From contig JAUYPI010000008.1 of NCBI GenBank assembly GCA_030697645.1, forward strand, positions 4,301 to 68,300: a stretch of DNA of 64,000 bases, in the 5' to 3' direction. Origin of the DNA: a bacterium (GTDB lineage: Bacteria > Patescibacteriota > Minisyncoccia > Phycocordibacterales > VMGT01). Below are positions 7,345 to 56,924 of this stretch, piece by piece (the stretch's first letter is position 1; every line of letters starts with the position of its first letter). The translations under genes and the position numbers were made by a program. The notes beneath the pieces are model-generated. The model was not told the origin of the DNA. It did no database searches and was given only the letters and a program-made list of their open reading frames with translations.

Positions 7345-7887
7345 ATGCCTTTTCTCGAAACACACATTGAAGCCATACTATTTTACGTTACCGAACCCAT
7401 GTCGGTCGGCGAGTTAGCATGCCTGTTTGCATGTACGACTGCGGAGATAGAAATAGCGCTCACGGCGCTCGATGCCGCGCTTGCGGAGCGTGGAGTGCGG
7501 TTGGTGCGAATCGGCGAGAGCGTCGAGCTCCGCGCCGCGAGAGAGGCTGCGCCGCTCATTGAGAAACTCCGGCAGGACGAACTCTCGCGCGAGCTCTCGC
7601 GCGCTTCGCTTGAAACGCTCGCGGTCGTACTCTACCAGGGCCCGGTGACGCGATCCGAGATCGAGTATATCCGCGGCGTGCAGTCGCAGAGCTCAATCCG
7701 GTTGCTCGCGGGCCGCGGGCTCATTCAAAAAATATCGGAGTATGGGAGCAAACGCGGCACCTTCTATCGCGCGACCACCGAGGCGCTGGCGCATGTTGGG
7801 TTGAGTAGGGTAGAGGAGTTGCCCGACTACGAGAAGACGCAGGCAGTATTAAAGCAAAACGGGCGTGAAGAAGTGCAGGCATTTTAA
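7345..7887 (+). CDS. scpB: segregation and condensation protein B
   Basis: A winged-helix pair typical of ScpB (EAILFYVTEPMSVGELA ... ETLAVVLYQGPVTRSEIEYIRGV). Confidence 0.8.
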   Translation: MPFLETHIEAILFYVTEPMSVGELACLFACTTAEIEIALTALDAALAERGVRLVRIGESVELRAAREAAPLIEKLRQDELSRELSRASLETLAVVLYQGPVTRSEIEYIRGVQSQSSIRLLAGRGLIQKISEYGSKRGTFYRATTEALAHVGLSRVEELPDYEKTQAVLKQNGREEVQAF

Positions 7888-7895
7888 ATTCGACA

Positions 7896-8903
7896 TTGCG
7901 TCTCATTGAGATGCCACAGTATACTGGCGCTATGCGTAAAAGCCTTGCCCAACTCAATCTTCCGCGCTACTGCAGCGAGCTCGGTGTGCCGCTTGCGTCC
8001 TGCCCGCCGTTTCTTTTTATCATCATGGGCGTCGTGGTTATCGGCGCGATACTCGGTACGTACGCGGTGGCGCAGCGGTACGCAGAACCCGAGATTGCGG
8101 TGCTCATCATGCTTGCGCTCGCCGCGTTTCTGTTTGTCGTCGGGTACCTTATCATTGGCGCGTTTGAAAAATTGGCCGATTCGCGAGCGCGCGAGCGTCG
8201 TCAGGCCACCGAACTTCTCACGCTGAAGGATCAATTTGTGTTCCTCGCTGCCCACGAGCTCCGCGCACCGGCAACGGCAATCAAATGGGCGGTTGAATCC
8301 CTCGAGACCAACACACCAGAACTGGTCTCCAAAAATAAAGAGGAAATCCGACTGATTGTGCAAAATACGATGCGCCTCTTGGGCCTCGTGCATGATATTC
8401 TCGAGACTGCGCGGCTCGAGAGTCAGGCGCTGCGCATTTCTCTCCAGCCGACGCAACTCGGTGATATTATAGAGCAGGCGACCTCTTCAGTGCGTAATCT
8501 TGCTCAGGCACATGGAGTTACCGTTGTCTCCCGGTTGGAGGGGAATGTACCGCGTGTCAGTGCGGACCCCCTGCGACTTGGCGCGGTGTTCACCAATCTT
8601 CTTTCGAACGCGATTAAGTTTAGCGAACGCGGCAGCGAGGTTGAGATTACGGCGCTCACGAGTGAGAAGACCGTCGCCGTGGACGTCGTTGACCACGGGG
8701 TGGGTATCGCGAAGGACGACCAACCACACATTTTTGAAAAATTTTGGCATGGCGTCGGAACGATCGTATCGGTGGAACACAGCGGCCTTGGCCTTTTTAT
8801 CACGAAACAGCTCGTCCAACTTATGGGGGGTTCGATACGATTCGCCTCGGAGCAGGGCGAAGGTTCGACGTTCACCGTTGAGCTCAAGCGCGCGGAGGGG
8901 TGA
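7896..8903 (+). CDS. sensor histidine kinase (2 TM, HisKA + HATPase_c)
   Basis: H-box AAHELRAP, then N/G1/G2 boxes (LLSNAIKFS, DHGVGI, GLGLFITKQLVQLMGG). No response regulator is adjacent. Confidence 0.85.
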   Translation: MRLIEMPQYTGAMRKSLAQLNLPRYCSELGVPLASCPPFLFIIMGVVVIGAILGTYAVAQRYAEPEIAVLIMLALAAFLFVVGYLIIGAFEKLADSRARERRQATELLTLKDQFVFLAAHELRAPATAIKWAVESLETNTPELVSKNKEEIRLIVQNTMRLLGLVHDILETARLESQALRISLQPTQLGDIIEQATSSVRNLAQAHGVTVVSRLEGNVPRVSADPLRLGAVFTNLLSNAIKFSERGSEVEITALTSEKTVAVDVVDHGVGIAKDDQPHIFEKFWHGVGTIVSVEHSGLGLFITKQLVQLMGGSIRFASEQGEGSTFTVELKRAEG

Positions 8904-13667: not shown

Positions 13668-14900
13668 GTGCAACACACACCAAAAGTGCTCATGATCGGC
13701 TGGGAACTGCCGCCCTTTAACAGCGGCGGGCTTGGTGTTGCTTGCTACGGGCTCGCCAAAGCGCTTGCCGGACGCGGGACGGACATACTCTTCACGCTCC
13801 CGCACGAGGCAGCAGTCTCGGCGCCGTTCATGAGAGTGTGGTTTGCGGGAAGCGAGGTTTCGAGAGCAGCGGCGAAGTTCACCGCATACAGTTCTGTCGG
13901 GCCGCGAGGCACTCGGGCGCGAGGCATGGAACAGGGCGGTAACACGCTTTTTGATACGGTGTATGCTTACGCTCGCGCGGTGCGCGAGCGTGCGATGAGA
14001 GAGCACTTCGACCTCATCCACGCGCACGACTGGCTCACGTTTCCAGCGGGGCTTGCCGCGGCGGAGGCGACGGGAAAACCTTTGATTACGCACGTCCATG
14101 CGACCGAGTTTGACCGCACCGGCGGCCGGGGCGCGAACAGTGAGGTGTATCGGATTGAACGTGAGGCCTTCGAGGGAGCAGAGCGCGTTGCGACGGTGAG
14201 CAACTACACGCGGGAGCTCGTCGCGCGAAACTACAGTGTCGATCCGGACAAAATTTCAGTGCTGCACAACGGCATTGATCCGGAAGAATTCAAGGCGGGG
14301 CAGGGGAGGATCGAGGCCCTCCGGCGCCTGCGCGAGCGGGGCGCGAAAATTGTTCTTTTTGTCGGACGGCTCACGATACAGAAAGGGCCGGATTATTTTA
14401 TCGCTGCCGCCGCACGCACGCTCGCGCATCGCCCGAACACCTATTTTGTTATCGCGGGATCCGGCGATATGGAACGGCAAATAATAGAAGAGGCCGCCTA
14501 TCGGCGGATCGCGGAGCGGGTGCTCTTTACGGGATTTGTTCGCGGCGATGAGCGCGACGCGCTCTACCGAGCGGCGGATGTCTACGTGATGCCCTCGGTT
14601 TCGGAGCCGTTCGGCATCACGGCGCTTGAAGCTATCGGGTACGGCGTGCCGGCAATCGTCTCGAAGCAAAGCGGCGTGCGCGAAGTCTCGCCGCACATGC
14701 TGCTTGCCGATTTTTGGGACGTCGACGAGCTCGCGAACAAAATTATTGCCGTCATAGACCACCCCGCCCTCACCGACACCCTGCGCGAGCACAGCATCAA
14801 GGACGTCCTGCGGGCCACGTGGGATAGGACGGCGGAGAAATGCCTTGAGATGTATCGGGGCTTACTTGCGGGGCAAGCGTATGCAGCGGGCTGTGCATGA
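13668..14900 (+). CDS. GT4-family glycosyltransferase (glycogen-synthase-like)
   Basis: Retaining GT-B glycosyltransferase motifs: HAHDWLTF, GRLTIQKGPDY, EPFGITALEA. Followed by GH57 and GH15 genes. Confidence 0.8.
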   Translation: MQHTPKVLMIGWELPPFNSGGLGVACYGLAKALAGRGTDILFTLPHEAAVSAPFMRVWFAGSEVSRAAAKFTAYSSVGPRGTRARGMEQGGNTLFDTVYAYARAVRERAMREHFDLIHAHDWLTFPAGLAAAEATGKPLITHVHATEFDRTGGRGANSEVYRIEREAFEGAERVATVSNYTRELVARNYSVDPDKISVLHNGIDPEEFKAGQGRIEALRRLRERGAKIVLFVGRLTIQKGPDYFIAAAARTLAHRPNTYFVIAGSGDMERQIIEEAAYRRIAERVLFTGFVRGDERDALYRAADVYVMPSVSEPFGITALEAIGYGVPAIVSKQSGVREVSPHMLLADFWDVDELANKIIAVIDHPALTDTLREHSIKDVLRATWDRTAEKCLEMYRGLLAGQAYAAGCA

Positions 14901-14925
14901 AGGAACCAATCAGTTCAAGGCGTCT

Positions 14926-15030
14926 AAATTTTCAATTATCAATTTACAATTTTCAATCAATTTTCAATGACACAATTTTCAAACACGACGTCGTCGTTTT
15001 GAAAATTAGAAATTGAAAATTGGTAATTGT
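14926..15030. repeat. family A palindromic element with ACACGACGTCGTCGTTTT core
   Basis: TAAATTTTCAATTATCAATTTACAATTTTCAATCAATTTTCAATGACACAATTTTCAAACACGACGTCGTCGTTTTGAAAATTAGAAATTGAAAATTGGTAATTG. Confidence 0.8.
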
Positions 15031-15036
15031 GTAAAC

Positions 15037-16335
15037 ATGCCTTCCGTCTGCTTCTACTTCCAAGTCCATCAGCCGATGCGCATTCGCCGCTTCAGGGTGT
15101 TTGATGTGGGCAACGACCACGGGTACTTCGACGAGGGGAGCGGTGCGAGAACAGACAATCGCGCGGTGCTCGAAAAGGTGGCGCGCAAGTCATATCTTCC
15201 CACGAACCGACTGCTCCTCGCCCTCCTCGAGCGCCATCCGGAATTTCGCGTGAGTTTTTCGCTCTCGGGAGTTCTCCTCGAGCAGCTCGAGCGCTACGAG
15301 CCGGACGTACTTGCCTCGTTTCAAGCCCTGGTGAAGACCGGCCGCGTCGAGCTCCTCGCCGAGACCTATTACCACTCGCTCTCTTTTCTTTTCTCACGGG
15401 AAGAATTCGAGCGGCAGGTGCGACTCCATGAGCGTTTAATCAAAAGATTGTTCGGCGTTCGGCCGCGCGTGTTCCGCAATACCGAGCTCATTTACCACAA
15501 TGACATCGGGCGAGTGGTGAGTGCGATGGGTTACAGCGGCATACTTGCCGAAGGCGCGGATCACATTCTCGGCTGGCGGAGCCCGTGCTTTCTCTACCGG
15601 CCGAAAGGAGTGTCGCGGACAGCGCTCCTCCTCAAGAATTACCGCCTCTCGGACGATATCGCATTTCGCTTCGGTGAGCGTTCATGGAAAGAGTACCCAC
15701 TGACAGCCGGCAAATTCGCCGATTGGGTCGAATCACACAACGGAGGCGGAAACCTGATCAATCTCTTTATGGACTACGAGACATTCGGGGAGCACCAATG
15801 GGAGGACACCGGCATTTTTGCATTTCTTGAGCATCTGCCTCGCGAGCTCCTGCGCCGCCGCGATACTGATTTTGTGACGCCATCCGAGGCGATCCGCCGG
15901 TACCGGCCGGTCGCCGAGCTCGACGTGCCGCACTACGTCTCGTGGGCCGATATCGAGCGCGATCTCTCAGCATGGCGCGGCAATGCCCTGCAGGAGCAGG
16001 CCTTGAGGGAGCTCTACTCACTTGAGCGCGATGCGCTCGCGAGCCGCGACCCCGTACTCATCGAAGATTGGCGTCGGCTCCAGACCTCCGACCACTTTTA
16101 CTACATGTGCACGAAGTGGTTTGCGGACGGCGATGTGCACAAATACTTCAATCCGTACGAGTCGCCGTATGACGCATTTATCTCATACATGAATGTGCTT
16201 GCGGACCTGCGGCTGCGCCTTGGTGGCGTTTCGGGTCGGAGCCGCGCAGGGCCGATTGCGCGAATACGCGAGTGGGGCACTCTGATCCGCTCCCCGCTAT
16301 CGTTTTTGAAAAACGTCGTATCATTATCAGCGTAA
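15037..16335 (+). CDS. glycoside hydrolase family 57 (alpha-amylase / 4-alpha-glucanotransferase-like)
   Basis: GH57 hallmark N-terminus VCFYFQVHQPMRIRRF (HQP motif). An earlier TTG in the ORF lies inside the palindrome and was not used. Confidence 0.8.
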   Translation: MPSVCFYFQVHQPMRIRRFRVFDVGNDHGYFDEGSGARTDNRAVLEKVARKSYLPTNRLLLALLERHPEFRVSFSLSGVLLEQLERYEPDVLASFQALVKTGRVELLAETYYHSLSFLFSREEFERQVRLHERLIKRLFGVRPRVFRNTELIYHNDIGRVVSAMGYSGILAEGADHILGWRSPCFLYRPKGVSRTALLLKNYRLSDDIAFRFGERSWKEYPLTAGKFADWVESHNGGGNLINLFMDYETFGEHQWEDTGIFAFLEHLPRELLRRRDTDFVTPSEAIRRYRPVAELDVPHYVSWADIERDLSAWRGNALQEQALRELYSLERDALASRDPVLIEDWRRLQTSDHFYYMCTKWFADGDVHKYFNPYESPYDAFISYMNVLADLRLRLGGVSGRSRAGPIARIREWGTLIRSPLSFLKNVVSLSA

Positions 16336-16349
16336 TATAAGTTAATACC

Positions 16350-16655
16350 ATGTCATTTATGGCAACAGTCAAACGAACACTCGGAAGCAAGAAGCTCTCA
16401 AGTAGAGCGATGCACGAGGTGACCGGCGCCGCCTGTTTCTGGGTCAATAACGGACCGATTCTCTGCAGCCTGCGCGATTTGCACACCGCGCTCGGCGTGA
16501 TGACCAAAAAGCAGTTTGAGCACCACGCGCGAGCGCAACACAACGACTTCGCATCATGGGCGGAGGGCGTCTTTGCCGACAAGGCGCTCGCTCTGAGGCT
16601 CCGTCGCGCAAAGACCCCGGCAGGAATGCGCAAGGCGCTCGCGGCGTACCTGTAA
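16350..16655 (+). CDS. hypothetical protein within the glucan cluster
   Basis: 101-aa ORF with genome-typical codon usage, between GH57 and GH15. No recognisable motif. Confidence 0.45.
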   Translation: MSFMATVKRTLGSKKLSSRAMHEVTGAACFWVNNGPILCSLRDLHTALGVMTKKQFEHHARAQHNDFASWAEGVFADKALALRLRRAKTPAGMRKALAAYL

Positions 16656-16658
16656 CGT

Positions 16659-16793
16659 AAATTTCCAATTTTCAATTTTGCAATTTTCAATCAATTTTCA
16701 ATGGATCAATGATTCAATGACGGACGCCGTCGCGTTTGAAAATTGCGTCATTGAAAATTCATTGGAAATTGAAAATTGTACATTGAAAATTTT
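16659..16793. repeat. family A palindromic element with GACGGACGCCGTCGCG core
   Basis: AATTTCCAATTTTCAATTTTGCAATTTTCAATCAATTTTCAATGGATCAATGATTCAATGACGGACGCCGTCGCGTTTGAAAATTGCGTCATTGAAAATTCATTGGAAATTGAAAATTGTACATTGAAAATTTT. Confidence 0.8.
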
Positions 16794-16801
16794 ACACTCC
16801 C

Positions 16802-18757
16802 ATGCCCTTATCCTTAGTCCTCGGCAACGGTGAAATGCTCGTCGGGCTTGACAACAAAGGTCAAGTGCGGGATCTCTATCAGCCGCACCCCGGGCTCGAG
16901 AACCACGTCGGAGCAGCATGCGTGCATCGGATCGGCGTATTCGTTGACGGCAGGTTCTCATGGCTCTCGGAGGAGAGCTGGCGCGTCGGCATTATCTACG
17001 AGCCGCAAACGCTCGTTTCCGAGATACAAGCGGTTCATGCCGGGCTCGGCGTCCAGCTCCATTTCACCGATGTTGTCTACAACGAGGAGCCGATTTTTGT
17101 GCGGCGGCTACGCGTACGGCAGACGGGGAGAGAGCCGCGCACGATCAAAATATTCTTCCACCAACAGTTTCAGATTTACGGCACGGCGTATGGCAATACG
17201 GCGCTCTACGATCCGAAAAACGCCTCGATCGTCCACTATCGCGGTCGGAGAGTATTTTTAGTGAGCGGCATTCGTGGGGGTAAGAGTTTTGACGACTTCA
17301 GCATCGGCGTCGCGGGAATCGAGGGTAAAGAAGGGACCTGGCGGGACGCTGAAGACGGCGCACTCTCGAAAAACGCCGTTGAGCACGGAGCGGTTGATTC
17401 CGTGATTGCGTTTACGCTCCCGACAGGCAGCGAGCAGAGCGAAATCTACTACTGGATCGCTGCCGGGGCGACGCTCGCCGAGGCGCGGGAGCGCCACGAT
17501 CTCATCAAACTTCGCTCGCCGGAGCACATCATCGAGAGTACCGGCGATTTTTGGAGGGCATGGAGCAGGGCTGGCGAGCGAGGTCTCGAGAAACTTCCCG
17601 CAAAGATTGCCGGACTATTTACGACATCGCTCCTCGTGATCCGCGCGCACCTCGATCATGAAGGGGGCATTATTGCATCTGCGGATTCCGAAATGCTGAA
17701 GTATGGCAGGGATAGCTATGCATATGTCTGGATGCGCGATGCCGCATTGGCGGCGAGAGCGCTTGACTGCGCGGGCTACCCCGACACCGCCGAGCCGTTT
17801 TATCAGTTTTGCGCGGACACGCTTATGCCCGAAGGGTACTTTTATCACAAGTATCTACCGGACAAATCGCTCGGAAGCTCCTGGCATCCATGGGTGCGGG
17901 GGGGGAAGGAGCAGCTTGGTATCCAGGAGGACCAGACGGCGACGGTGCTCTTTGAGCTGTGGGGCCACTACGAGTCGAGCCGCAATCTTGAGTTTATTGA
18001 GCGGCTCTACAATCCTCTGATTAAGCGAACGGCCACGTTTCTTGTAACCTACCGTGACCGAGCGACGGGCCTGCCGCTTCCGAGCTATGACCTCTGGGAG
18101 GAGCGCTATGGCGTGTCCACATATACTGCAGCGTCCGTCTTTGGGGGCCTCAGAGCCGCGGCCCGTTTTGCGGAGCTTCTCGGGAAGGAGCAGGACGCGC
18201 GTGATTTTAGCAGCGCGGCAGAAGAAGTTCGGACAGGCATCCTGAAATACCTCATAAACTCCGAGACTGGATACTTCCTCAAGCAGATTTCCTACGAGCA
18301 CGATGAACCGATGTCCGATCCGACGCTTGATACCGCGGGTTTTGCCGGGGTCTTTCGCTTCGGCATCCTAGAGCCCGACGACAAGCGGCTCCGCAAGGCC
18401 GCCGAGTCTCTCAGGGATTGGCTCTGCTGCAAGACCCCGTTTGGCGGCGCAGCGCGCTACGAGGGAGATATGTACTATCGCGCTGATGCGCGGCTGCCGG
18501 GTAACCCCTGGATAATTTCAACGCTCTGGTATGCGCAGTACTTGATTGCAATCGCCGAAAAGACGCGTGAACTTGAAGAAGCGCTGGTTTGGCTGAACTG
18601 GACCGTTGATCGCGCGAATGGCGCCGGCATGCTGCCCGAGCAAGTTGACCCGCATACCGGCGCGCCAGTCTCCGCCTCGCCTCTGGTCTGGAGCCACGCG
18701 GAGTTTGTGTATACCGTTCTCCAATACCTTGCCAAATTGAAAGAATTGGAGAAGTAG
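16802..18757 (+). CDS. glycoside hydrolase family 15 (glucoamylase/glucodextranase-like)
   Basis: (alpha/alpha)6-barrel GH15 signatures (YAYVWMRDAALAARAL, LWEERYGVSTYTAASV) with an N-terminal beta-sandwich domain. Confidence 0.8.
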   Translation: MPLSLVLGNGEMLVGLDNKGQVRDLYQPHPGLENHVGAACVHRIGVFVDGRFSWLSEESWRVGIIYEPQTLVSEIQAVHAGLGVQLHFTDVVYNEEPIFVRRLRVRQTGREPRTIKIFFHQQFQIYGTAYGNTALYDPKNASIVHYRGRRVFLVSGIRGGKSFDDFSIGVAGIEGKEGTWRDAEDGALSKNAVEHGAVDSVIAFTLPTGSEQSEIYYWIAAGATLAEARERHDLIKLRSPEHIIESTGDFWRAWSRAGERGLEKLPAKIAGLFTTSLLVIRAHLDHEGGIIASADSEMLKYGRDSYAYVWMRDAALAARALDCAGYPDTAEPFYQFCADTLMPEGYFYHKYLPDKSLGSSWHPWVRGGKEQLGIQEDQTATVLFELWGHYESSRNLEFIERLYNPLIKRTATFLVTYRDRATGLPLPSYDLWEERYGVSTYTAASVFGGLRAAARFAELLGKEQDARDFSSAAEEVRTGILKYLINSETGYFLKQISYEHDEPMSDPTLDTAGFAGVFRFGILEPDDKRLRKAAESLRDWLCCKTPFGGAARYEGDMYYRADARLPGNPWIISTLWYAQYLIAIAEKTRELEEALVWLNWTVDRANGAGMLPEQVDPHTGAPVSASPLVWSHAEFVYTVLQYLAKLKELEK

Positions 18758-18788
18758 CAACAGATTTGGAAAGATGGGTTGAAGGGTA

Positions 18789-18917
18789 AAATTTTCAATG
18801 TACAATTTTCAATTTTCAATCAATTTTGCAATGACACAATTTTCAAACACGACGTCGTCCGTCACTCAGTCATTGACACGTTGAAAATTGATTGAAAATT
18901 GCAAAATTGAAAATTTT
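18789..18917. repeat. family A palindromic element with ACACGACGTCGTCCGTCA core
   Basis: AAATTTTCAATGTACAATTTTCAATTTTCAATCAATTTTGCAATGACACAATTTTCAAACACGACGTCGTCCGTCACTCAGTCATTGACACGTTGAAAATTGATTGAAAATTGCAAAATTGAAAATTTTT. Confidence 0.8.
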
Positions 18918-18979: not shown

Positions 18980-19246
18980 ATGAGCAACAAGATATTATTG
19001 CAAGAGTTGAGCGCTCCCGGCTGCCTGCACTGCAAAGAGTTTGCGGCATTTTGGGAGTCCATAAAGGGTGAGTGGTCGAATGTCGAGTTTCAAGACGTGA
19101 GTGTTGTCACACCCGAGGGTCAAGAGCTCGCGCAAAAGCACATGATCTTCGCGTCGCCGGGAATAATTATCAACGGGGAGTTGTTTAGTACGGGCGGGGT
19201 GGACAAAAAGAAGTTTGTGGAGAAGCTGAAGAAGCTGTCTGCTTAA
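18980..19246 (+). CDS. thioredoxin-fold protein (CxxC)
   Basis: CLHC active-site motif in a thioredoxin/glutaredoxin-like fold. First gene of the copper/redox cluster. The start codon is uncertain (alternatives at 18917 and 18962). Confidence 0.6.
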   Translation: MSNKILLQELSAPGCLHCKEFAAFWESIKGEWSNVEFQDVSVVTPEGQELAQKHMIFASPGIIINGELFSTGGVDKKKFVEKLKKLSA

Positions 19247-19286
19247 TGCAAAAGGACCAAGAGCGTATGGCGGCAAACTTTTTATC

Positions 19287-19670
19287 ATGAACCTCTTCGA
19301 CAAACTCACCCCACAATTGTTCCTCCGTCTCGGCCTCGGCGCGGTGTTTGCGTACTCGGGACTTAATATTCTGCTGCACCCCACTGCGTGGACGTGGGCT
19401 CTGCGCGGGCTGCCGGCGTTCATCCAAACCCAGATCGATCGGGTTGGCCCCGAGATGTATCTTCGCGGTCAGGGCATCGCCGAGCTCGCTATGGCGGCGG
19501 CGTTCCTTGCGTGGTTCCTGCCGCGCTGGCTTGTACGTATCGCGGCGTTTTTTGCGGCCGTTGAAATGGCGGCGATACTGGTTTTTGTCGGCGTCGACGC
19601 CGCGACATTCCGCGACATCGGCCTTCTCGGCGCGGCGCTCGGGGTATTGTTCGGCAGGGCGTTTTATTAG
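19287..19670 (+). CDS. DoxX-family membrane protein
   Basis: Four predicted TM helices with a DoxX-like pattern (LGLGAVFAYSGLNILLHP ... AELAMAAAFLAWF). Confidence 0.7.
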   Translation: MNLFDKLTPQLFLRLGLGAVFAYSGLNILLHPTAWTWALRGLPAFIQTQIDRVGPEMYLRGQGIAELAMAAAFLAWFLPRWLVRIAAFFAAVEMAAILVFVGVDAATFRDIGLLGAALGVLFGRAFY

Positions 19671-19832
19671 ATTTTTAATTGTGGAACAATCAAACAAACT
19701 AAAAAAACCACTCTCGCCGTGACTGCGATCGGCATTTTTGCCGTGATTTTGATGGGTGTGCTTTAGTTATGCACAATATATCGTATCGCATCGTTGAGTT
19801 GTATAGTACAATTTGAATACTAGAAGATATCT

Positions 19833-21983
19833 ATGCCTGAGGAAATTCAATCACAACAAACATCGGCGCAATCACCTAGCCAGAATGTCGTCCCCGAAAG
19901 TCAGAGCGACAATCAGGCCGAGCACCGCACCAAAATACGCATTGCGATGGTAGGTTTTGCCTTGTTTTTTGTTTTTGTCATCGGTCTTTTTTGGCTTGCG
20001 ACGACTCCCCAGCAGACCGTAGGCCTGACTCTCTCTTTTGCCGCGGGCCTTTCAATGATTTTCTTGCCCTGCACTCTGCCGCTTGCGTTTGTGATTGTGC
20101 CGCTCACACTGGGGAAAAATCCTAAGAAGGGGCTTTTCATGGCGCTGTCCTTCACTCTCGGGCTCACCATTACCCTGTCTTTATACGGCGTTTTTATTGC
20201 CGCCGCGGGCAAGGCCTTTGGTTTGAAGTCCGATGCCGAGGTGTACGCGGTTCTTCTTGGAGGGACCGCCGCTTTCCTTTTCGGTTTGTCAGAAATCGGA
20301 TTGCTGAAATTCAGACTTCCTTCATATTCCGGAAAGTTCCCGGATTTTATCCAGCGCCAAAAGGACTATGTCAAGACCTTCCTTTTGGGACTTTTGCTCG
20401 GGAATGCCGGGGTGGGCTGCCCGAACCCGGCTTTTTATGTGCTCCTCGGATATATCGCGACAACAGGAGATATCTTTAACGGATGGTTTTTGGGTTTTGT
20501 CCACGGAATGGGTCGCTCTGTTCCGCTTATCTTTCTTGCCATTCTCGGGACGCTCGGCGTGAACGCCCTCGCGCCGGTTGTGAAGCACAAGGAAACGATT
20601 GCGCGCGCCATGGGATGGATGCTTCTCATCGTCGGTGCTTATCTTCTCACGTTTGGCATTTTCGGCCATGATTGGTTTATTGCGTCGGGAACTCACTCGT
20701 CGTGGGAGCAATTCGTCAATAACATCGGAGGAGAGAGGTTTGGTGAAATAGTACTCGAGCACGAGCATCCGCTTATTGACGCTTCTGGTTTTATCCGATA
20801 CGGCAATATGTTTTTCTTGGGCCTTCTTGCGGTGACGATGCTCACGGCGTTTATCGTCAAACGGCCCTCTAGGCGCACGATAAAATGGCTTGTCGCCGTA
20901 TACATGGGGCTTGCGCTTATCATCGGGTATTCCACGGGATGGACATTTACCCTGGGGAGAAATATGCAGGGACATGGAAAAGAAGCTGCAGAGGCTGGTC
21001 ATGAGCACGGAGACATGATGGATACGCGCGACATGCCGAGCGCCGCGTCGCTCGCTGCGCTCCCGCTCCGCGGACCGTCAAATCGTCTCGAGCGCTTACC
21101 TTTCAGCGTGAGTCCTGACGGCTATAAAGAATTCCGCCTCGAGGCGAGCGAATTCCGTTGGGAGTATGCAGATGGGAAATGGGTGCATGTCTGGGGCTAC
21201 AACGGCCAGGTCCCCGGGCCGGAGATACGCGCGAATGAGGGCGACAAGGTGCGGGTAATTGTAAAAAATAGTTTGCCGGATGCGACCACGATCCACTGGC
21301 ATGGACTCGATGTGCCGTGGCAGATGGACGGCGTTGCAGGGGTTACGCAGAAAGCGATCGAGCCGGGCGCTACGTTTACATACGAATTCGTGGCGACACC
21401 GGCTGGCACGCGCTTTTACCATTCGCACGGGAAAGACCACAGTACTGCGGCGCAGCAGATGGACATGGGGCTCTCGGGGGCGTTTATTGTAGCGCCGGAT
21501 TATGGTGATATTGACATAGATTCCCTTCGTGAGTATACGCTTGTACTTGACGAGTGGGACATTCAGGCAGGCGGTGTTAATTCTGCAATCTCGCACATGC
21601 ACGACACGGGCATGATGGGTGCGGTGCCGGACTTCAATACGTTCACTATCAACGGTCGCATTTTTCCATACGTCCCGAAGCTTGATATTAAGAAAGGGGA
21701 GTCCGTGCTCGTGCGCTTTATCAATGCCGGCACTGCGGCATTCCACCCTATGCATCTCCACGGCCACAGTTTTAAGGTAGTCGCGCGCGACGGCTTCCTG
21801 CTTGAACATCCAGAGGAGCGCAATACGATTACCGTAAACCCCGGTGAGACGGTTGACATATCGGTTGAAGGCAACAATCCGGGCCCGTGGCTCCTGCACT
21901 GCCACCACGTGCACCACGCGGCGGCAGGGATGATTACACTCCTACAGTATGAGGGGTATGAGCCGATACAGTCGCTCAAATGA
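19833..21983 (+). CDS. CcdA/DsbD-like transmembrane thiol-disulfide transporter domain fused to a multicopper oxidase
   Basis: N-terminal six-TM domain with conserved Cys in TM1 (FLPCTLPLAF) and TM4 (NAGVGCPNPAF), as in CcdA. C-terminal multicopper-oxidase copper ligands HWHGLD, YHSHG, HPMHLHGH and HCHHVHH. Confidence 0.8.
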   Translation: MPEEIQSQQTSAQSPSQNVVPESQSDNQAEHRTKIRIAMVGFALFFVFVIGLFWLATTPQQTVGLTLSFAAGLSMIFLPCTLPLAFVIVPLTLGKNPKKGLFMALSFTLGLTITLSLYGVFIAAAGKAFGLKSDAEVYAVLLGGTAAFLFGLSEIGLLKFRLPSYSGKFPDFIQRQKDYVKTFLLGLLLGNAGVGCPNPAFYVLLGYIATTGDIFNGWFLGFVHGMGRSVPLIFLAILGTLGVNALAPVVKHKETIARAMGWMLLIVGAYLLTFGIFGHDWFIASGTHSSWEQFVNNIGGERFGEIVLEHEHPLIDASGFIRYGNMFFLGLLAVTMLTAFIVKRPSRRTIKWLVAVYMGLALIIGYSTGWTFTLGRNMQGHGKEAAEAGHEHGDMMDTRDMPSAASLAALPLRGPSNRLERLPFSVSPDGYKEFRLEASEFRWEYADGKWVHVWGYNGQVPGPEIRANEGDKVRVIVKNSLPDATTIHWHGLDVPWQMDGVAGVTQKAIEPGATFTYEFVATPAGTRFYHSHGKDHSTAAQQMDMGLSGAFIVAPDYGDIDIDSLREYTLVLDEWDIQAGGVNSAISHMHDTGMMGAVPDFNTFTINGRIFPYVPKLDIKKGESVLVRFINAGTAAFHPMHLHGHSFKVVARDGFLLEHPEERNTITVNPGETVDISVEGNNPGPWLLHCHHVHHAAAGMITLLQYEGYEPIQSLK

Positions 21984-23068
21984 AAAATGAAAAAATCAAA
22001 GTGAAAAATGATACTGTGCAATGCAAAATTTTTAATTTTGCATTGTCGTTATTAGTTTTTCATTTGTACTTTCTACCTTTGTTGGTGTTCGCAAACGGCG
22101 GTGACGCCCATGACACGGCATCTCCACACGACGCGGAGCTTCCACATGTCGGCGTAGGGACCGTCATCGAGGAGATATCTGTGCGCGAGGGACTTGTGGT
22201 GCATATGAGTATAACGACGCCGGTGACGACTAGCATGCCGCTTCCGTTCAGTTTTTTGATCAACGAAAAACCTGGCAATACTGTGGTGCCATTCTACGAG
22301 CTCGACGTGGAGCATACAAGACTGATGCACGTCATCGGCGTACGAAGTGATCTCAATGAGTTCCGCCACATCCACCCGGAGCCGTCGCCAGATGATCCGG
22401 CGGTTTTCAGAATCGAGCATACGTTCGATAACCCGGGTGAGTACAAATTTTGGTCCGAGATAGCTCGCGGACAGCAGCATTTTACTTTTGGCCATCCAAT
22501 GTTCATGGTCACGGGCGATGGCGTCGAGTCCAAGAAAGTGATCTCGCTTGCTCGTAACGTGATCGTCGGCGACTACCAAGTAGCGCTCTCGGTACCGCAG
22601 CGCATTGCTACGGGCCGCGCCGCAGACCTGACGTTTGACGTCCATACGCTCGTTGGCGACGGCATCGCGCTCGAGGAATATCTTGGTGAGCCGATGCACC
22701 TCGTGGCGATCAAGGGAGACCTCAGCCAATTTGTCCACGCGCACCCGACGGAAGCGCACACTCATGCGATCAATACACTCGCACCGGTTGCTCACGCTCA
22801 CGGCCCGACCGGCGACGCGCCCGGCTACGAGCCGGTGAATTTTCATGTAGCGTTTCCCACTGCCGGATTTTACAAGCTCTTCGCGCAATTTCGGCCGCAG
22901 GGGGCTAACCTTGACACAGACGAAACATTGACCGCGACTTTTTGGGTTGAGGTTAAAGACAGTACGCTCGCGCCGGCCACGGGGCAGGTTCTGCTCACGA
23001 CAGTCTCACTGGTGTTGATGGCGTTGCTTAGTGTTTGGGTGTATCGGTATATTCATCGCACGGCATAA
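21980..23068 (+). CDS. secreted/membrane-anchored His-rich protein (putative copper-binding)
   Basis: Signal-anchor-like N-terminus, His-rich stretches (HAHPTEAHTHAINTLAPVAHAHGPTGD) and a C-terminal TM helix. It overlaps the previous stop codon (ATGA), which suggests translational coupling. Confidence 0.6.
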   Translation: MKNEKIKVKNDTVQCKIFNFALSLLVFHLYFLPLLVFANGGDAHDTASPHDAELPHVGVGTVIEEISVREGLVVHMSITTPVTTSMPLPFSFLINEKPGNTVVPFYELDVEHTRLMHVIGVRSDLNEFRHIHPEPSPDDPAVFRIEHTFDNPGEYKFWSEIARGQQHFTFGHPMFMVTGDGVESKKVISLARNVIVGDYQVALSVPQRIATGRAADLTFDVHTLVGDGIALEEYLGEPMHLVAIKGDLSQFVHAHPTEAHTHAINTLAPVAHAHGPTGDAPGYEPVNFHVAFPTAGFYKLFAQFRPQGANLDTDETLTATFWVEVKDSTLAPATGQVLLTTVSLVLMALLSVWVYRYIHRTA

Positions 23069-23077
23069 AAGCGAAAA

Positions 23078-23168
23078 GTGTATCTCGTATTTTGTAGCTC
23101 GTATCTTGTATAGTTTGTATAAAACTCCTCATACGAAATATAAGATACACAATACAAAATACAAGGCA
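23078..23168. repeat. ATACAAAATACAAG-word palindromic element (family E)
   Basis: Left arm GTATCTCGTATTTTGTAGCTCGTATCTTGTATAGTTTGTAT, right arm ATACGAAATATAAGATACACAATACAAAATACAAGG. A second copy lies at 34338-34470. Confidence 0.75.
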
Positions 23169-23172
23169 CACT

Positions 23173-23610
23173 ATGAACAAATATCTCATCGTCGGTATTA
23201 TTGCAGTTGTAGTCATCGGCGGCGGCATATTCTACCGCACGACGCTGCTCTCGGAGGATAAGGTGCCGCTCGTGACCGGCGTGGTGCACGAGGTCGCTGT
23301 CGTTGCGAAGAAAAATGAGTGGCGCTTTGTGCCGGAGGAGATAGAGATTAATCACGGTGACCACGTCATAATGACGGTGATTAATGAAGACGACTATGAC
23401 CACGGCATCGCCATAGATTCCTATGGTGTCTCACAGAGAATGCCTGCCAATAGTACAAGAGTCATAGAGTTCGATGCCACCCAGCAGGGCGATTTTCCTT
23501 TTTATTGCTCTGTTCCGTGTGGCGAGGGCGAGGTGGACGGCGTCCTTCGCACCCACTTCGACATGATAGGCAAATTGCACGTTAAGAGTTTAATTTCCGA
23601 GACACGCTAA
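23173..23610 (+). CDS. cupredoxin-like (blue copper / CoxII-like) protein with N-terminal TM anchor
   Basis: Type-1 copper ligand pattern H...C..C..H..M (HGIAIDS ... FYCSVPCGEGEVDGVLRTHFDM). Confidence 0.7.
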   Translation: MNKYLIVGIIAVVVIGGGIFYRTTLLSEDKVPLVTGVVHEVAVVAKKNEWRFVPEEIEINHGDHVIMTVINEDDYDHGIAIDSYGVSQRMPANSTRVIEFDATQQGDFPFYCSVPCGEGEVDGVLRTHFDMIGKLHVKSLISETR

Positions 23611-23686
23611 AATTGAATGCGTACGTTTGACGGTAGACAGTCGATGTGGTACTCTGCTGCAGGGTGAAAAGAGAAAGGAGGCGATA

Positions 23687-24109
23687 ATGCTAGATATACC
23701 AGTAGTGGTCTCAGGTTCTTTCCGTAAACATTTGGCAGAGATTCAGGAGGCGATACGGCAATTCAGAGCGCTTGGGGTGACCGTGCTTTCACCACAACTC
23801 TCGCCAGCGGTAAATCCTGGCGACGACTTCGTTCTCCTCGAGAGCGACGATACAGACGACCCGAGCGTGCTCGAACAACGACACCTTGATGCGATCGCAG
23901 AGGCGCATCTGCTCTATATTTGCAATCCGGGTGGCTATATCGGCCCAACGGTCGCGATGGAGATCGGTTGGGCGAGAGCGCATGAGGTACCTATCGTTGC
24001 AAGCCACACGCTGGCGGACGTCACGCTCATGCACTTTGTTGACCAGACGTTGCTATCACCGAAGGAGGTGGTTGCGGCCTTCCTCCGCTATCGCAGTGGC
24101 ACAAGCTGA
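23687..24109 (+). CDS. nucleoside 2-deoxyribosyltransferase / Rcl (DNPH1)-like protein, paralog 1
   Basis: Rossmann-like NDT-superfamily motifs: VVVSGSF near the N-terminus and YIGPTVAMEIGWA (the D/x-G-x3-E-x-G-x-A loop). A Shine-Dalgarno AAAGGAGG precedes the ATG. Confidence 0.55.
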   Translation: MLDIPVVVSGSFRKHLAEIQEAIRQFRALGVTVLSPQLSPAVNPGDDFVLLESDDTDDPSVLEQRHLDAIAEAHLLYICNPGGYIGPTVAMEIGWARAHEVPIVASHTLADVTLMHFVDQTLLSPKEVVAAFLRYRSGTS

Positions 24110-24135
24110 CGGTATCGAACTCACCTATAAATAGT

Positions 24136-24165
24136 AGCCCGCTCATGTTGTTTCGTGAGCGGGCT
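24136..24165 (+). terminator. terminator hairpin AGCCCGCTCA-tgttgtttcg-TGAGCGGGCT
   Basis: 10-bp stem followed by GTCGTTATTTTATT. Confidence 0.6.
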
Positions 24166-24218
24166 GTCGTTATTTTATTCATCGGGATTATGGGCGTTCG
24201 GTGTGGTACACTGTTGTT

Positions 24219-24665
24219 ATGAAAATCACTATCTGCGGGAGTATTGCGTTTTACAACGAGATGCTTGAAGCGCAGGCGGCGCTCGAAGATTTTGGGCATG
24301 AGGTGAAATTGCCGCCACAGAGCATAAAAGACGAGAACGGCGCCGTGATGTCGGTTCAGGAGTATTACGATCTACGCAAAGCAGCCACGACCGACACGGG
24401 CTGGATATGGGACAGAAAGGCGGAGGCAATCGCAGCCCATTTTGAAAAAGTCGAGTGGGCGGATGCCATCCTCGTGACCAATTACGACAAAAACGATATT
24501 TCGGGCTACATCGGCGGCAATACGCTGATGGAGATGGGCGTGGCGTTCTTTTTACGGAAACCGGTCTATCTTCTCAAACAAATCCCCCTACTCTCCTATA
24601 GAGAAGAAATTATCGGCATGAAGCCGATCGTGATCGAGCACGATTTTGCACGCATCAGTGTGTAA
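24219..24665 (+). CDS. nucleoside 2-deoxyribosyltransferase / Rcl (DNPH1)-like protein, paralog 2
   Basis: ITICGSIAFYN resembles the Rcl IYFCGSIRGG motif. GYIGGNTLMEMGVAF matches the NDT active-site loop. Confidence 0.55.
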   Translation: MKITICGSIAFYNEMLEAQAALEDFGHEVKLPPQSIKDENGAVMSVQEYYDLRKAATTDTGWIWDRKAEAIAAHFEKVEWADAILVTNYDKNDISGYIGGNTLMEMGVAFFLRKPVYLLKQIPLLSYREEIIGMKPIVIEHDFARISV

Positions 24666-53052: not shown

Positions 53053-54108
53053 TTAAATTTTATCTGCGTCAAATTTCAAAACAACGAGCGTCCGGTCGTG
53101 GGAGTAGAGAGCGCCGTTTTCGTGCGCTTTTTCCTCACTGAAGTGATGGAGTTCTTTTTTTAGATTGTGGGGCCAGCGGCGGAAAAGGTCGATGAATTCT
53201 GGGAGGTCGAAGTAACGCTCGAAGCCATCGGTATAGAGAAAGACAAGGTCGCCTGGCGCGACTCTGAGCGTGCCGGTGTTAAGGTAGGGCTCCGCGGCGT
53301 CCTCGCCAGTCGCGACGCCGTAGCCGATGAGTTCGCCTTTCGGCCCCAAGCCGTTGCGGTAGAGGCGGCGGAGTTCTTTTTTGCGCTCTTCTTCCGGCCG
53401 TGATTCCCAGTCTTTGGGAAAGCAGCGGCGCTCGGGAGTACTCGGCCAGCATTCGGGAGAGCGGAATTTGAGGGAGCCATGTGAGTCGTAGTGCGCGACA
53501 AAGCTGTCGCAAATTGAGGCCCAGTAAAGTAACCGTTTACTGTTTCCTGATCGGTGGACATCGGATGTCCACCGACGTGGCGGTGCGAGAATCGCAAAAG
53601 CAGCCGTCGTGGTGAAGAGATCTTTTCCCCAGTAGTCGAGCGCGCCGGGGACTCTACCTCGGGAGTGATTGTACTCGCTCACGGCTGCATTTCCAGCGCG
53701 AAAGATGGCGGGGAGGTCGCTTGTGCTAAAATGTTTATATCGCCGCCGCGCGCTCTTGAGCGCGTCCATACAAAAGAGGCGGGCCGCACGAGCGGCTCCG
53801 GAGGGCAGGGGATAGGTGCCGTCCGGATTGAACTCAAGCGTCACTCCGTCGGCAACCACAAAAATCGGGCGGCGCGGGTCGGCGAGCAGGAAGTCTTCAT
53901 TCGGGTGCGCGAGCGCCTCGAGTCGGTCGAGATTATGGTGAAGTTTCTCCTCGATAAAGTGATCGAGCGCGTGCGCAAGCGGAGCAAAGAAGCGCGTTAC
54001 GCTCCGGTGCTCTCGTATGAACGAAGCGACAGCGTTCGCGGGGAGCGGGGCGCGAAAGGTAATGATACGATAGCGCATGAACCTTATCGTATCAGGCGGC
54101 CGCTTCAT
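53053..54108 (-). CDS. PP2C-family (SpoIIE-like) Ser/Thr protein phosphatase
   Basis: Metal-binding Asp motifs FVVADGV, DLVFLYTDGF and DRTLVVL. The start is uncertain (alternative Met at 54075). Confidence 0.7.
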   Translation of the reverse strand: MKRPPDTIRFMRYRIITFRAPLPANAVASFIREHRSVTRFFAPLAHALDHFIEEKLHHNLDRLEALAHPNEDFLLADPRRPIFVVADGVTLEFNPDGTYPLPSGAARAARLFCMDALKSARRRYKHFSTSDLPAIFRAGNAAVSEYNHSRGRVPGALDYWGKDLFTTTAAFAILAPPRRWTSDVHRSGNSKRLLYWASICDSFVAHYDSHGSLKFRSPECWPSTPERRCFPKDWESRPEEERKKELRRLYRNGLGPKGELIGYGVATGEDAAEPYLNTGTLRVAPGDLVFLYTDGFERYFDLPEFIDLFRRWPHNLKKELHHFSEEKAHENGALYSHDRTLVVLKFDADKI

Positions 54109-54269
54109 TTTTTCTTGTCAGACAGCATATAAAGCCTTGCGTCAAGTGTTTTTTCTTTTTGTGGTTGTGCACTATACTTAATACTTATGAGTAATAATGA
54201 GTCCAGCAGTGTGCAACGAGCAACTTTTTCTTGGTAACTGTTTGCCGCTGACCGAGACAGTTTTTATTT

Positions 54270-56711: not shown

Positions 56712-56719
56712 AGGTTCAC

Positions 56720-56883
56720 GAATTTCCAATTTCCAAATTCACAATTTCCAAATAATTTCCAAAACTTCAAGTTCCAATTTCCAAACACGACGCGGCTACT
56801 CGTAATGGTAGTGGTGTTTGGGATTTAATTTTTTGGAATTTGAGATTTGTTTGGAAATTGGTTACTTGGAAATTGGAAATTTA
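56720..56883. repeat. AATTTCCAA-word palindromic element (family B) with ACACGACGCGGCTACTCG core
   Basis: AATTTCCAATTTCCAAATTCACAATTTCCAAATAATTTCCAAAACTTCAAGTTCCAATTTCCAAACACGACGCGG ... TTTGGAAATTGGTTACTTGGAAATTGGAAATTT. Confidence 0.8.
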
Positions 56884-56924
56884 GATACTCGGTGGTGTTT
56901 GAATTCTCCAACGGGCAACCACGT

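Follow-up and report, generated by a model that had tools for sequence, protein, structure and literature searches.

A Patescibacterial gene cluster joining a CcdA-like membrane module to a two-domain multicopper oxidase, with a possible role in surface copper homeostasis

Results and discussion

A five-gene cluster and its fusion protein

We describe a cluster of five co-directional genes in a 64-kb window (the whole stretch of DNA analyzed, 64,000 nucleotides of the Patescibacterial contig JAUYPI010000008.1). Its third gene encodes a 716-amino-acid (aa) protein in which a CcdA-like membrane module is fused to a multicopper oxidase (MCO). The genes and features are listed in Table 1, where coordinates are positions in the window; throughout, bit scores are compared with Pfam or NCBIfam cut-offs, the gathering cut-off being used for Pfam. 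A preliminary description of this DNA had reported five co-directional open reading frames (ORFs), the first encoding a CxxC thioredoxin-fold protein and the fourth translationally coupled to the third, and all of this was borne out: the ORFs lie at the positions claimed, the gene 1 product scores above the thioredoxin-family cut-off, and gene 4 overlaps the stop codon of the fusion gene as ATGA.

Table 1 Positions of the cluster genes, protein segments and palindromes in the 64-kb window
Feature	Position	Strand	Basis or content
Compound palindrome 5' of gene 1	18788..18917	none	Inverted repeats I1-I6, core TTTTCAATTTTCAATCAATTTT
Gene 1, thioredoxin-fold protein	18980..19246	+	Thioredoxin_3 (PF13192), 30.3 bits, gathering cut-off 24.8
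Gene 2, DoxX-like small membrane protein	19287..19670	+	PF07681, 18.6 bits, under the cut-off of 23.6
Gene 3, fusion protein, 716 aa	19833..21983	+	DsbD_TM, residues 65-272; Cu-oxidase_3, 442-555; Cu-oxidase_2, 602-703
Gene 3, membrane module, aa 1-371	19833..20945	+	TM0, CcdA-like TM1-6, TM7-8; PF02683
Gene 3, extracytoplasmic TM6-TM7 loop, aa 278-317	20664..20783	+	His cluster H279, W281, H288, H310-E-H312
Gene 3, His/Met/acid-rich linker between TM8 and oxidase, aa 372-425	20946..21107	+	Includes GHGKEAAEAGHEHGDMMDTRDM
Gene 3, two-domain multicopper oxidase, aa 426-716	21108..21983	+	Pfam and NCBIfam matches
Gene 4, exported tandem beta-sandwich protein with C-terminal anchor	21980..23068	+	AlphaFold2 model, conserved His
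Imperfect palindrome with 35-nt arms, gap between genes 4 and 5	23077..23172	none	Inverted-repeat search
Gene 5, N-terminally anchored extracytoplasmic cupredoxin	23173..23610	+	Cupredoxin_1 (PF13473), 34.4 bits, cut-off 27

The gene 1 protein has an SPGCxxC motif (C15-x-x-C18) that is kept across seven loci, and it has neither a signal peptide nor a transmembrane (TM) helix, which places it in the cytoplasm. It is the putative dedicated electron donor of the membrane module. The gene 2 product can be aligned, at 35-39% identity, with the N-terminal DoxX domains of larger fusion proteins described below, and the DoxX domains of some of these fused relatives match PF07681 with E-values down to 7.6e-6. 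A weak MauE/DoxX match was also seen at a related locus, L003, the one observation in line with a possible parallel to the methylamine-utilization genes MauE, MauD and MauF.

The preliminary description had allowed that the fusion might be two genes joined through a frameshift or a missed stop codon. The NCBI contig of the metagenome-assembled genome and two Logan assemblies, all three independent of one another, contain one and the same 716-aa ORF, and at least 24 homologues on other contigs, at 33-70% identity, have the same architecture. Because of this agreement between assemblies and the 24 homologues that share the architecture, the fusion is not an artefact of assembly, annotation or sequencing, an explanation to which we assign a practically negligible probability.

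The membrane module belongs to the DsbD/CcdA superfamily

The N-terminal half of the fusion had been described as a CcdA-like transporter of six TM helices with conserved cysteines in TM1 and TM4. The cysteines were confirmed but the helix number was not, as hydropathy and an AlphaFold2 (AF2) model (mean predicted local distance difference test [pLDDT] score 80.8) agree on about nine helices, including a preceding TM0 (residues 25-57) and the additional TM7 (318-343) and TM8 (347-367). The DsbD_TM family PF02683 is matched at 49.5 bits (cut-off 27.1). Cys80 (nucleotides 20070-20072) lies in the motif P79-C80-T-L-P83 (PCTLP) and Cys196 (nucleotides 20418-20420) in GVGCPNP, and in the model TM1 and TM4 break at these two points. 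C196 never varies among 93 sequences, and C80 is retained in at least 90% of them; the invariance of both residues in the GTDB set introduced below arises partly by construction, the retrieval patterns including both motifs. In a Foldseek search the membrane half matched the nuclear magnetic resonance structure of CcdA (5vkv) with a probability of 0.98, 24% identity and a target-normalized TM-score of 0.46, and the remaining matches had probabilities of 0.30 or less, leaving CcdA as the sole meaningful structural relative. Annotated dsbD genes, 25% identical over residues 56-270, were the sole annotated plasmid relatives of the membrane half found by tblastn, and a sequence-only search of the PDB with this half gave nothing useful. 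The membrane module is thus a member of the DsbD/CcdA superfamily that has kept both membrane cysteines.

It fits none of the three classes described for that superfamily (PMC3322552). CcdA proteins have six TM helices and no extra domains, whereas this protein has about nine helices and a 345-aa outside domain. The DsbD/ScsB type shares the feature of an eight-TM core, but the fusion has neither an alpha nor a gamma domain, and its C-terminal domain is an MCO. No NCBIfam equivalog was reached by the membrane half, the DsbD equivalog NF001419 scoring 56 bits against a cut-off of 330.

The loop between TM6 and TM7 is 40 residues long and acidic (seven Asp and Glu against one Lys or Arg), and it forms two short helices in the model. 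Two of its residues, W281 and H288, are invariant at all 80 GTDB loci surveyed (80/80); together with H224 and R228 they are invariant or nearly so, and all four lie outside the retrieval patterns. The H310-E-H312 (HEH) motif of the same loop separates the fused members, 22 of 23 of which have it, from those that consist of the membrane module only (TM-only), where it was found in just 5 of 57.

The oxidase domain and its linker

The C-terminal half had been called a complete MCO. Its four copper motifs are indeed complete (H488-W-H490; H530-S-H532; H638-P-M-H641-L-H643; H689-C690-H691-x3-H695-x4-M700), and all 12 ligands (eight His of the trinuclear cluster and the T1 ligands His, Cys, His and Met) are the same throughout 47 relatives, 24 of them fused and 23 stand-alone, but there are just two cupredoxin domains, so that a trimer would be needed. 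The domain comprises about 290 aa and aligns over its full length with the two-domain MCO structures 3g5w, 2zwn and 3gdc. Cys is absent from the first domain, which leaves the type 1 (T1) copper solely in the second, the SLAC-like arrangement; the single Cys of the entire oxidase domain is the T1 ligand C690. By analogy with the two-domain type, in which the active site lies at the subunit interfaces of a trimer, the oxidase would probably have to trimerize. We rejected a reading of this half as NirK, given the Cys-free first domain, the full set of MCO trinuclear ligands and a TIGR02376 score of 70 bits against a cut-off of 296.

The linkers between TM8 and the oxidase are rich in His, Met and acidic residues in every fused relative, and longer relatives also carry His/Met-rich C-terminal tails and a second anchor. 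From their composition, these linkers and tails look typical of copper-binding segments.

Topology

Lys and Arg residues are distributed 20 to 2 between the predicted inside segments and the predicted outside loops of the 716-aa protein, and this positive-inside bias places the C-terminal domain outside. Independent support comes from two natural fusions. In P0003 the oxidase is joined straight to an exported His-rich domain of the gene 4 type, with no helix between them, and in P0099 a cupredoxin of the gene 5 type follows TM8 of the membrane module. The extracytoplasmic oxidase of the preliminary description is therefore also what we predict, and the oxidase, the gene 4 protein and the cupredoxin are all predicted to lie outside the membrane.

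Gene 4 encodes a probable, divergent YtkA-like tandem protein

Gene 4 had been taken for a His-rich secreted protein. An export signal is present, but the protein also has a C-terminal TM anchor, and between the two lies a tandem module, probably a copper-binding one, that resembles YtkA/CtaK in divergent form. The AF2 model (pLDDT 84.9) comprises a signal peptide, two immunoglobulin-like (Ig-like) beta-sandwiches and the C-terminal anchor. Each sandwich carries one three-His motif (H117/H130/H132 and H240/H253/H255); these are conserved, including M116-H117, and the ectodomain has no Cys. The protein itself has no Pfam or NCBIfam match. Its homologues P0139 (45% identity, 26.6 bits) and P0156 (39% identity, 32.3 bits) exceed the YtkA cut-off (PF13115, 25.9 bits) in the first sandwich, and weak YtkA matches occur in 15 of 49 fused members, which suggests a divergent YtkA/CtaK-like protein. 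A Foldseek search with the model gave generic tandem Ig matches, plus a weak match to Zcp/DUF4198 (PMC12663993), and PDB sequence searches with the protein and with the A1 profile were uninformative. CuA-site assembly involves YtkA/CtaK, a tethered lipoprotein whose conserved residues include His and Met, and a YtkA domain also occurs in the membrane copper importer YcnJ (PMC9145763, PMC13344008).

The start of gene 4 is uncertain, with ATG 21980, GTG 22001 and GTG 22016 as candidates. The NCBI annotation (hypothetical protein Q8R39_02150, 329 aa) begins 33 codons later; we did not adopt it and regard it as probably wrong, as it would delete (region 21980-22078) the export signal that all homologues carry. 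The 5' end of the long gene 4 ORF also contains a perfect palindrome at 22018-22046, with a 13-bp stem, GCAATGCAAAATT-TTT-AATTTTGCATTGT, which has the core ATTTTGCAAT in common with the repeat upstream of the cluster. The peptide encoded there, VQCKIFNFAL, is nevertheless conserved in the homologue P0123.

Gene 5 encodes a cupredoxin with a CuA-type ligand pattern

The preliminary description of gene 5 as a membrane-anchored cupredoxin agrees with its PF13473 score and N-terminal anchor, and we add that the ligand pattern resembles the CuA type and includes a Cys pair. The pattern H77, C112-x3-C116, H128-x2-M131 is conserved in eight sequences. The protein matches the CuA domains of NosZ and COX2 with the His and Cys ligands aligned (H77, C112 and C116 in the case of NosZ), and C112/C116 is the sole Cys pair among the exported proteins of the cluster. 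A role as a CupA-like cytoplasmic chaperone was considered and set aside: the match to CupA has an E-value of 0.72, and P0099 locates the domain outside.

A family of modular fusions

The window genes were compared by BLASTP with the 120 best homologues of the fusion, which gave approximate counts of architectures. The membrane module is fused to a YtkA-like domain in about 45 proteins and to DoxX and a YtkA-like domain in about 14, so that the gene 4-type domain, which is Cys-free, is the commonest partner (about 60 proteins). Fusion to a two-domain oxidase, as in the window, was found in about 25 proteins and fusion to a larger oxidase in about 14, while module plus oxidase plus YtkA-like domain and module plus cupredoxin occur once each, in P0003 and P0099. 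Anchored oxidases also occur by themselves, with identities of up to 86% to the fused oxidase domain.

The oxidase fusions form two groups. The membrane module of the window is 65-79% identical to YtkA-fused modules and 36-42% identical to those of a second oxidase-fusion group, whose oxidase domains are nonetheless 53-71% identical to that of the window. TM8 ends in GYSTGWTF in one group, as it does in YtkA fusions, and in F(I/V)Y-x-LP-x-RF in the other, as do the N-terminal anchors of stand-alone oxidases; some fusions share the latter motif with the N-terminal anchors of stand-alone His-rich proteins as well. Given the two TM8 motifs and the discordant identities of the two halves, the oxidase fusion arose at least twice, which argues for selection on physical coupling. 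Since unfused relatives mostly end after one extra helix, TM8 was probably the signal anchor of a formerly separate downstream gene.

These anchors and helices also bear on a neutral origin, in which adjacent operon genes merged through loss of a stop codon, TM8 is nothing other than the old signal anchor, and the two halves work independently. The single extra helix of most TM-only relatives, the anchor motif shared by some TM8 segments and the existence of closely similar stand-alone anchored oxidases are all as such an origin would predict. The module has, however, acquired four different partners, the oxidase in at least two lineages, and the fusions persist down to 33% identity; moreover, the HEH motif co-varies with the fused state, implying functional adaptation. 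We therefore regard a functionally neutral fusion as very unlikely.

The preliminary description had also called the architecture unusual, and rightly so. A search of 1.84 billion representatives gave 17,801 relatives, and at 50% identity the full oxidase fusion fell into very few of the clusters. Literature searches on CcdA-MCO fusions, on MCOs of Patescibacteria, on CcdA with CopA or CopZ, and on DoxX with CcdA and copper turned up no account of the family, and the database names of its members are generic ("multicopper oxidase domain-containing protein", "cytochrome c biogenesis protein CcdA", "hypothetical protein"). What is new is the combination of a DsbD-type relay with copper proteins outside, a thioredoxin of its own and a place in copper-export operons; the oxidase is in sequence an ordinary two-domain MCO.

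Genomic context of related loci

Six related loci in other genomes were examined. Five of them encode a Thioredoxin_3 protein, in some cases DoxX, a membrane-module fusion, a Cupredoxin_1 protein, an HMA P-type ATPase and an HMA protein, and the sixth (L004), where the contig breaks off inside the ATPase gene, has the rest of this core but no HMA protein. A Cu(I) ATPase is thus present at all six loci and a CopZ-like HMA chaperone at five. The ATPases are of the P1B-1 Cu(I) type, scoring 562-633 bits with TIGR01511 (cut-off 397) and carrying the CPC, YN-x4-P and M-x2-SS motifs. The copper role proposed in the preliminary description is strongly supported by these relatives but not by the window itself, where no copper ATPase was found in 64 kb. 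An 813-aa ORF at 54270-56711 was considered as the missing CopA and rejected, being a tetratricopeptide repeat (TPR) protein.

A scan of GTDB species representatives retrieved 478 relatives of the membrane module, mostly from Patescibacteria, with others in DPANN archaea, Methanoperedens, Bathyarchaeota, Thermodesulfobacteriota, Verrucomicrobiia and further groups. Neighborhoods were counted for the best 80 loci, comprising 57 unfused, 16 YtkA-fused, 4 oxidase-fused and 3 DoxX-YtkA-fused forms. A thioredoxin gene accompanies the module at 66 of the 80 loci, within 500 bp at 55, and a P-type ATPase gene is present at 40. Cupredoxins track the fused forms: they were found at 16/16 YtkA-fused, 3/4 oxidase-fused and 2/3 DoxX-YtkA-fused loci against 5/57 unfused ones. 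Recurrent neighbors further include a repressor of the CsoR/RcnR family (18 loci), ArsR-type regulators, DUF302 proteins, a DUF1573-rhodanese protein, Met-rich secreted proteins and a second DsbD_TM paralogue.

This context bears on whether the membrane module might be a copper translocator or membrane metallochaperone, in which the alternating-access Cys pair, H224 and the outer His cluster bind Cu(I) and move it to or from the fused domains and the small CxxC protein is the cytoplasmic copper partner. The DsbD_TM family belongs to a LysE-type clan with several metal-ion transporters. In its favor are also the near-invariance of H224, R228, W281 and H288 outside the retrieval patterns, the co-occurrence of HEH with fused copper domains, the Cys-free nature of the commonest fusion partner, and the parallel with YcnJ, which combines CopC, a CopD membrane domain and YtkA (PMC13344008). 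On the other hand, the conserved neighbor is a thioredoxin-fold CxxC protein, the canonical donor type, and a CopZ-like HMA chaperone and CopA are already there in the related operons; both cysteines lie in Pro-flanked motifs typical of redox-active DsbD/CcdA proteins, and CcdA was the only structural relative found. On balance we consider a translocator unlikely, while taking it seriously.

At L007 (11835-13447) the Thioredoxin_3 gene is followed by that of a 415-aa Pyr_redox_2 flavoprotein with weak matches of the CoA-disulfide reductase type, possibly a dedicated thioredoxin reductase. The oxidase-fusion locus L004 also encodes (7358-8185) a lipoprotein of the Rcas_1661 family, similar to DsbA/Thioredoxin_4, that recalls ScsC and might serve as an exported thiol acceptor. 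Unfused relatives at loci in the series L021-L088 (L044, 7677-9332; L075, 2-2539; L088, 7333-9426), from DPANN archaea, Methanoperedens, Desulfobulbia and others, have a CsoR/RcnR-family repressor, DUF302, a DUF1573x2-rhodanese protein and a second DsbD_TM paralogue as neighbors; this hints at a role in metal or sulfur stress that may differ from that of the fused forms.

A proposed role in copper homeostasis at the cell surface

We propose, with moderate confidence, that the five genes make up the surface half of a cop-type system for copper homeostasis in Patescibacteria, in which a thiol relay keeps cysteines reduced and an oxidase converts Cu(I) to Cu(II); the 716-aa protein would be one of its modular variants. 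Cu(I) would be brought to the outer face of the membrane by a CopA-type ATPase encoded elsewhere in the genome, and would be captured there by the CuA-type cupredoxin, the His/Met-rich linker, the three-His sites of the YtkA-like protein and the membrane module's conserved His loop. Using O2, the two-domain oxidase on its tether, probably a trimer, would then oxidize Cu(I) to the less toxic Cu(II), as CueO does. In parallel, the dedicated thioredoxin and the CcdA-like relay would send reducing equivalents outward, keeping copper-ligand and other exposed cysteines reduced against copper-catalyzed oxidation; the clearest candidate is the Cys pair C112/C116 of the cupredoxin. The fusion would serve to co-localize these activities on one substrate, copper, with no direct wire from relay to oxidase. 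There is precedent for the components: CcdA moves electrons outward from cytoplasmic thioredoxin, and TlpA keeps the cysteines of CuA reduced (PMC9145763), while ScsB ties a DsbD-type relay to copper tolerance (PMC3322552). P0099, in which a Cys-pair cupredoxin takes the place of the thioredoxin-like gamma domain of DsbD, fits such a reductase.

The preliminary description had instead suggested that the CcdA half feeds reducing equivalents directly to the oxidase, and this is not supported. An MCO draws electrons from its own substrate. With its single Cys engaged as the T1 ligand, the oxidase domain cannot carry out thiol-disulfide exchange. The module is mostly unfused or joined to the Cys-free YtkA-like domain, and the fusion is therefore better seen as a tether between co-workers on copper.

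Several points weigh against the role that we propose. The copper context is borrowed from relatives, as no copper ATPase, CopZ or regulator was found in the 64-kb window. The CueO equivalog NF008205 scores 124.7 bits against a cut-off of 525, and the oxidase may act on Cu(I), on Fe(II) or Mn(II), or on an organic compound. Most members of the family are TM-only, and 52 of the 57 TM-only loci have no cupredoxin, so that the cupredoxin Cys pair cannot be the universal acceptor. In the subgroup of the window the cupredoxin has the spacing C-x3-C-x11-H-x2-M, with an 8-aa insertion before H128, where the relatives L003, L004 and P0099 show the canonical CuA spacing (C-x3-C-x3-H-x2-M). Every characterized relay of the DsbD family uses an extracytoplasmic thioredoxin-like acceptor (PMC3322552), and no exported protein of that kind was found among the cluster genes of the window. 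Finally, a conserved outer His cluster beside the Cys pair is not accounted for by the role of a pure protein-disulfide reductase.

That His cluster, together with the CuA-type cupredoxin, opens the possibility that electrons cross the membrane to oxygen, the strong form of the idea in the preliminary description. Starting at NAD(P)H, they would move through a reductase and thioredoxin to the membrane Cys pair, then to copper outside, held at the His loop or the YtkA-like sites, and on through the CuA-type cupredoxin and the T1 site to O2, which is reduced to water. Such a non-energy-conserving thioredoxin:O2 oxidoreductase would scavenge O2 or re-oxidize cofactors in cells without respiratory chains, and CopA and CopZ would merely supply copper cofactors. 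All the redox elements are present and are linked physically through fusions. CuA centers are well known as carriers of single electrons, and NosZ and COX2 have ligands that line up with those of the cupredoxin; the reduction of Cu(II) by thiols is established chemistry. The His cluster is conserved beside an outward-facing Cys pair and includes the HEH motif, which marks the members that carry fused copper domains, and the flavoprotein gene after the thioredoxin gene at L007 might supply a reductase. Against this, the oxidase is absent from most members, including most full cop-type operons, and its domain offers no thiol partner. The His/Met-rich linkers and tails favor copper as the substrate, a free-running cycle of thiol, copper and O2 would waste reductant, and no precedent was found in the literature. 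We consider this path quite unlikely. A fourth class among the DsbD-type relays, wired to copper centers in place of a thioredoxin-like protein, is decidedly doubtful, too; in it the membrane dithiol would reduce copper at the outer His cluster, and the oxidase-bearing variants would pass electrons through the CuA-type cupredoxin and the two-domain oxidase to O2.

Within the copper-homeostasis system that we favor, the purpose could be detoxification or the metallation of surface cuproproteins. An adjacent copper pump and chaperones would serve either, because the oxidase has to cross the membrane unfolded and take up its copper on the outside.

Comparison with known systems

The cluster resembles the DsbD superfamily (CcdA, DsbD, ScsB) in its PF02683 match, in the Pro-flanked Cys residues on broken TM1 and TM4 helices and in the adjacent thioredoxin gene. 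As in DsbD and ScsB, the latter with its role in copper tolerance, two helices after the six-TM core put the C-terminal domain outside (PMC3322552). Unlike these proteins, the fusion has an extra N-terminal helix, an outer His cluster and a dedicated Thioredoxin_3 protein, and its relatives lie in cop operons; the domains outside are a two-domain MCO, a YtkA-like tandem or a CuA-type cupredoxin, not thioredoxin-like alpha and gamma domains.

The oxidase shares with the two-domain MCOs (3g5w, 2zwn, 3gdc) its length of about 290 aa, its two cupredoxin domains, its four copper motifs and the position of T1 in the second domain. In Escherichia coli cueO is co-regulated with copA, and the relatives described here likewise encode their oxidase together with CopA. 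In contrast to two-domain MCOs and CueO, however, the oxidase is bound to a polytopic membrane protein or a signal anchor and is not released by an export signal of its own, and it is flanked by His/Met-rich tethers on one or both sides.

Bacillus subtilis YcnJ (CopC-CopD-YtkA) provides a parallel for a polytopic domain with a C-terminal YtkA domain outside, and CtaK for a tethered protein with conserved His and a link to CuA. The differences are that the membrane domain is CcdA-like and not CopD, that the YtkA-like domain is duplicated and very divergent, and that the context is copper export, with no cytochrome oxidase in evidence, whereas YcnJ is an importer. In common with the CcdA/TlpA/Sco/PCuAC pathway, a supply of reductant, a copper chaperone and a client with a CuA-type Cys pair are co-encoded (PMC9145763). 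The cluster differs from that pathway in that it has no TlpA or Sco thioredoxin-fold intermediary, and its client is a free-standing anchored cupredoxin, not an oxidase subunit II.

In Streptococcus pneumoniae the cupredoxin-fold Cu(I) chaperone CupA is encoded beside CopA and faces the cytoplasm. The arrangement in our relatives is similar, in that a membrane-anchored cupredoxin with Cys ligands is encoded immediately 5' of copA, but the full set of CuA-type ligands is present, apart from the altered spacing in the window protein, and P0099 puts the domain outside.

The family exchanges the thioredoxin-like partner of DsbD relays for copper-binding or copper-oxidizing domains, and does so in copper-export operons of Patescibacteria. 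Its natural fusions offer unusually direct guilt-by-association for five poorly understood components: DoxX, the CcdA-like relay, the YtkA-like protein, the free CuA-type cupredoxin and the anchored oxidase. They are relevant to the metallation and protection of surface cuproproteins in ultra-small cells that have a single membrane and no periplasm, and they could reveal an unrecognized route for reducing power to the cell surface or to oxygen. Were the family indeed a fourth class of relay, ultra-small bacteria and archaea devoid of respiratory chains would have in it a minimal trans-membrane electron chain from thioredoxin to oxygen.

Palindromes and flanking genes

The preliminary description had taken two palindromes as the borders of the cluster, and in this it was mistaken. 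The palindrome at 23077-23172 sits inside the cluster, between genes 4 and 5, and the one upstream is a dispersed intergenic repeat, its core TTTTCAATTTTCAATCAATTTT having seven matches in the 64-kb window where none would be expected. For the same reasons we discarded the idea that the upstream palindrome is an operator specific to the cluster. AT-rich palindromic repeats with this core, mostly intergenic inverted pairs, lie at 2639-2736, 14943-14964, 16677-16775 and 18806-18905, and could be terminators, elements resembling repetitive extragenic palindromes (REP-like) or regulatory sites.

Genes of glycogen or alpha-glucan metabolism (13668-18757) lie directly 5' of the cluster and encode a GT4/GT5-like glycosyltransferase and GH57 and GH15 proteins. 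On the 3' side are two tandem genes for small proteins (23627-24109 and 24201-24665), the first of which weakly resembles nucleoside 2-deoxyribosyltransferase, and between them is a strong terminator-like hairpin of 14 base pairs (24134-24167). Farther downstream, at 54001-58000, the AT skew is strongly negative (-0.22 to -0.27) over the genes for the 813-aa TPR protein and MurJ.

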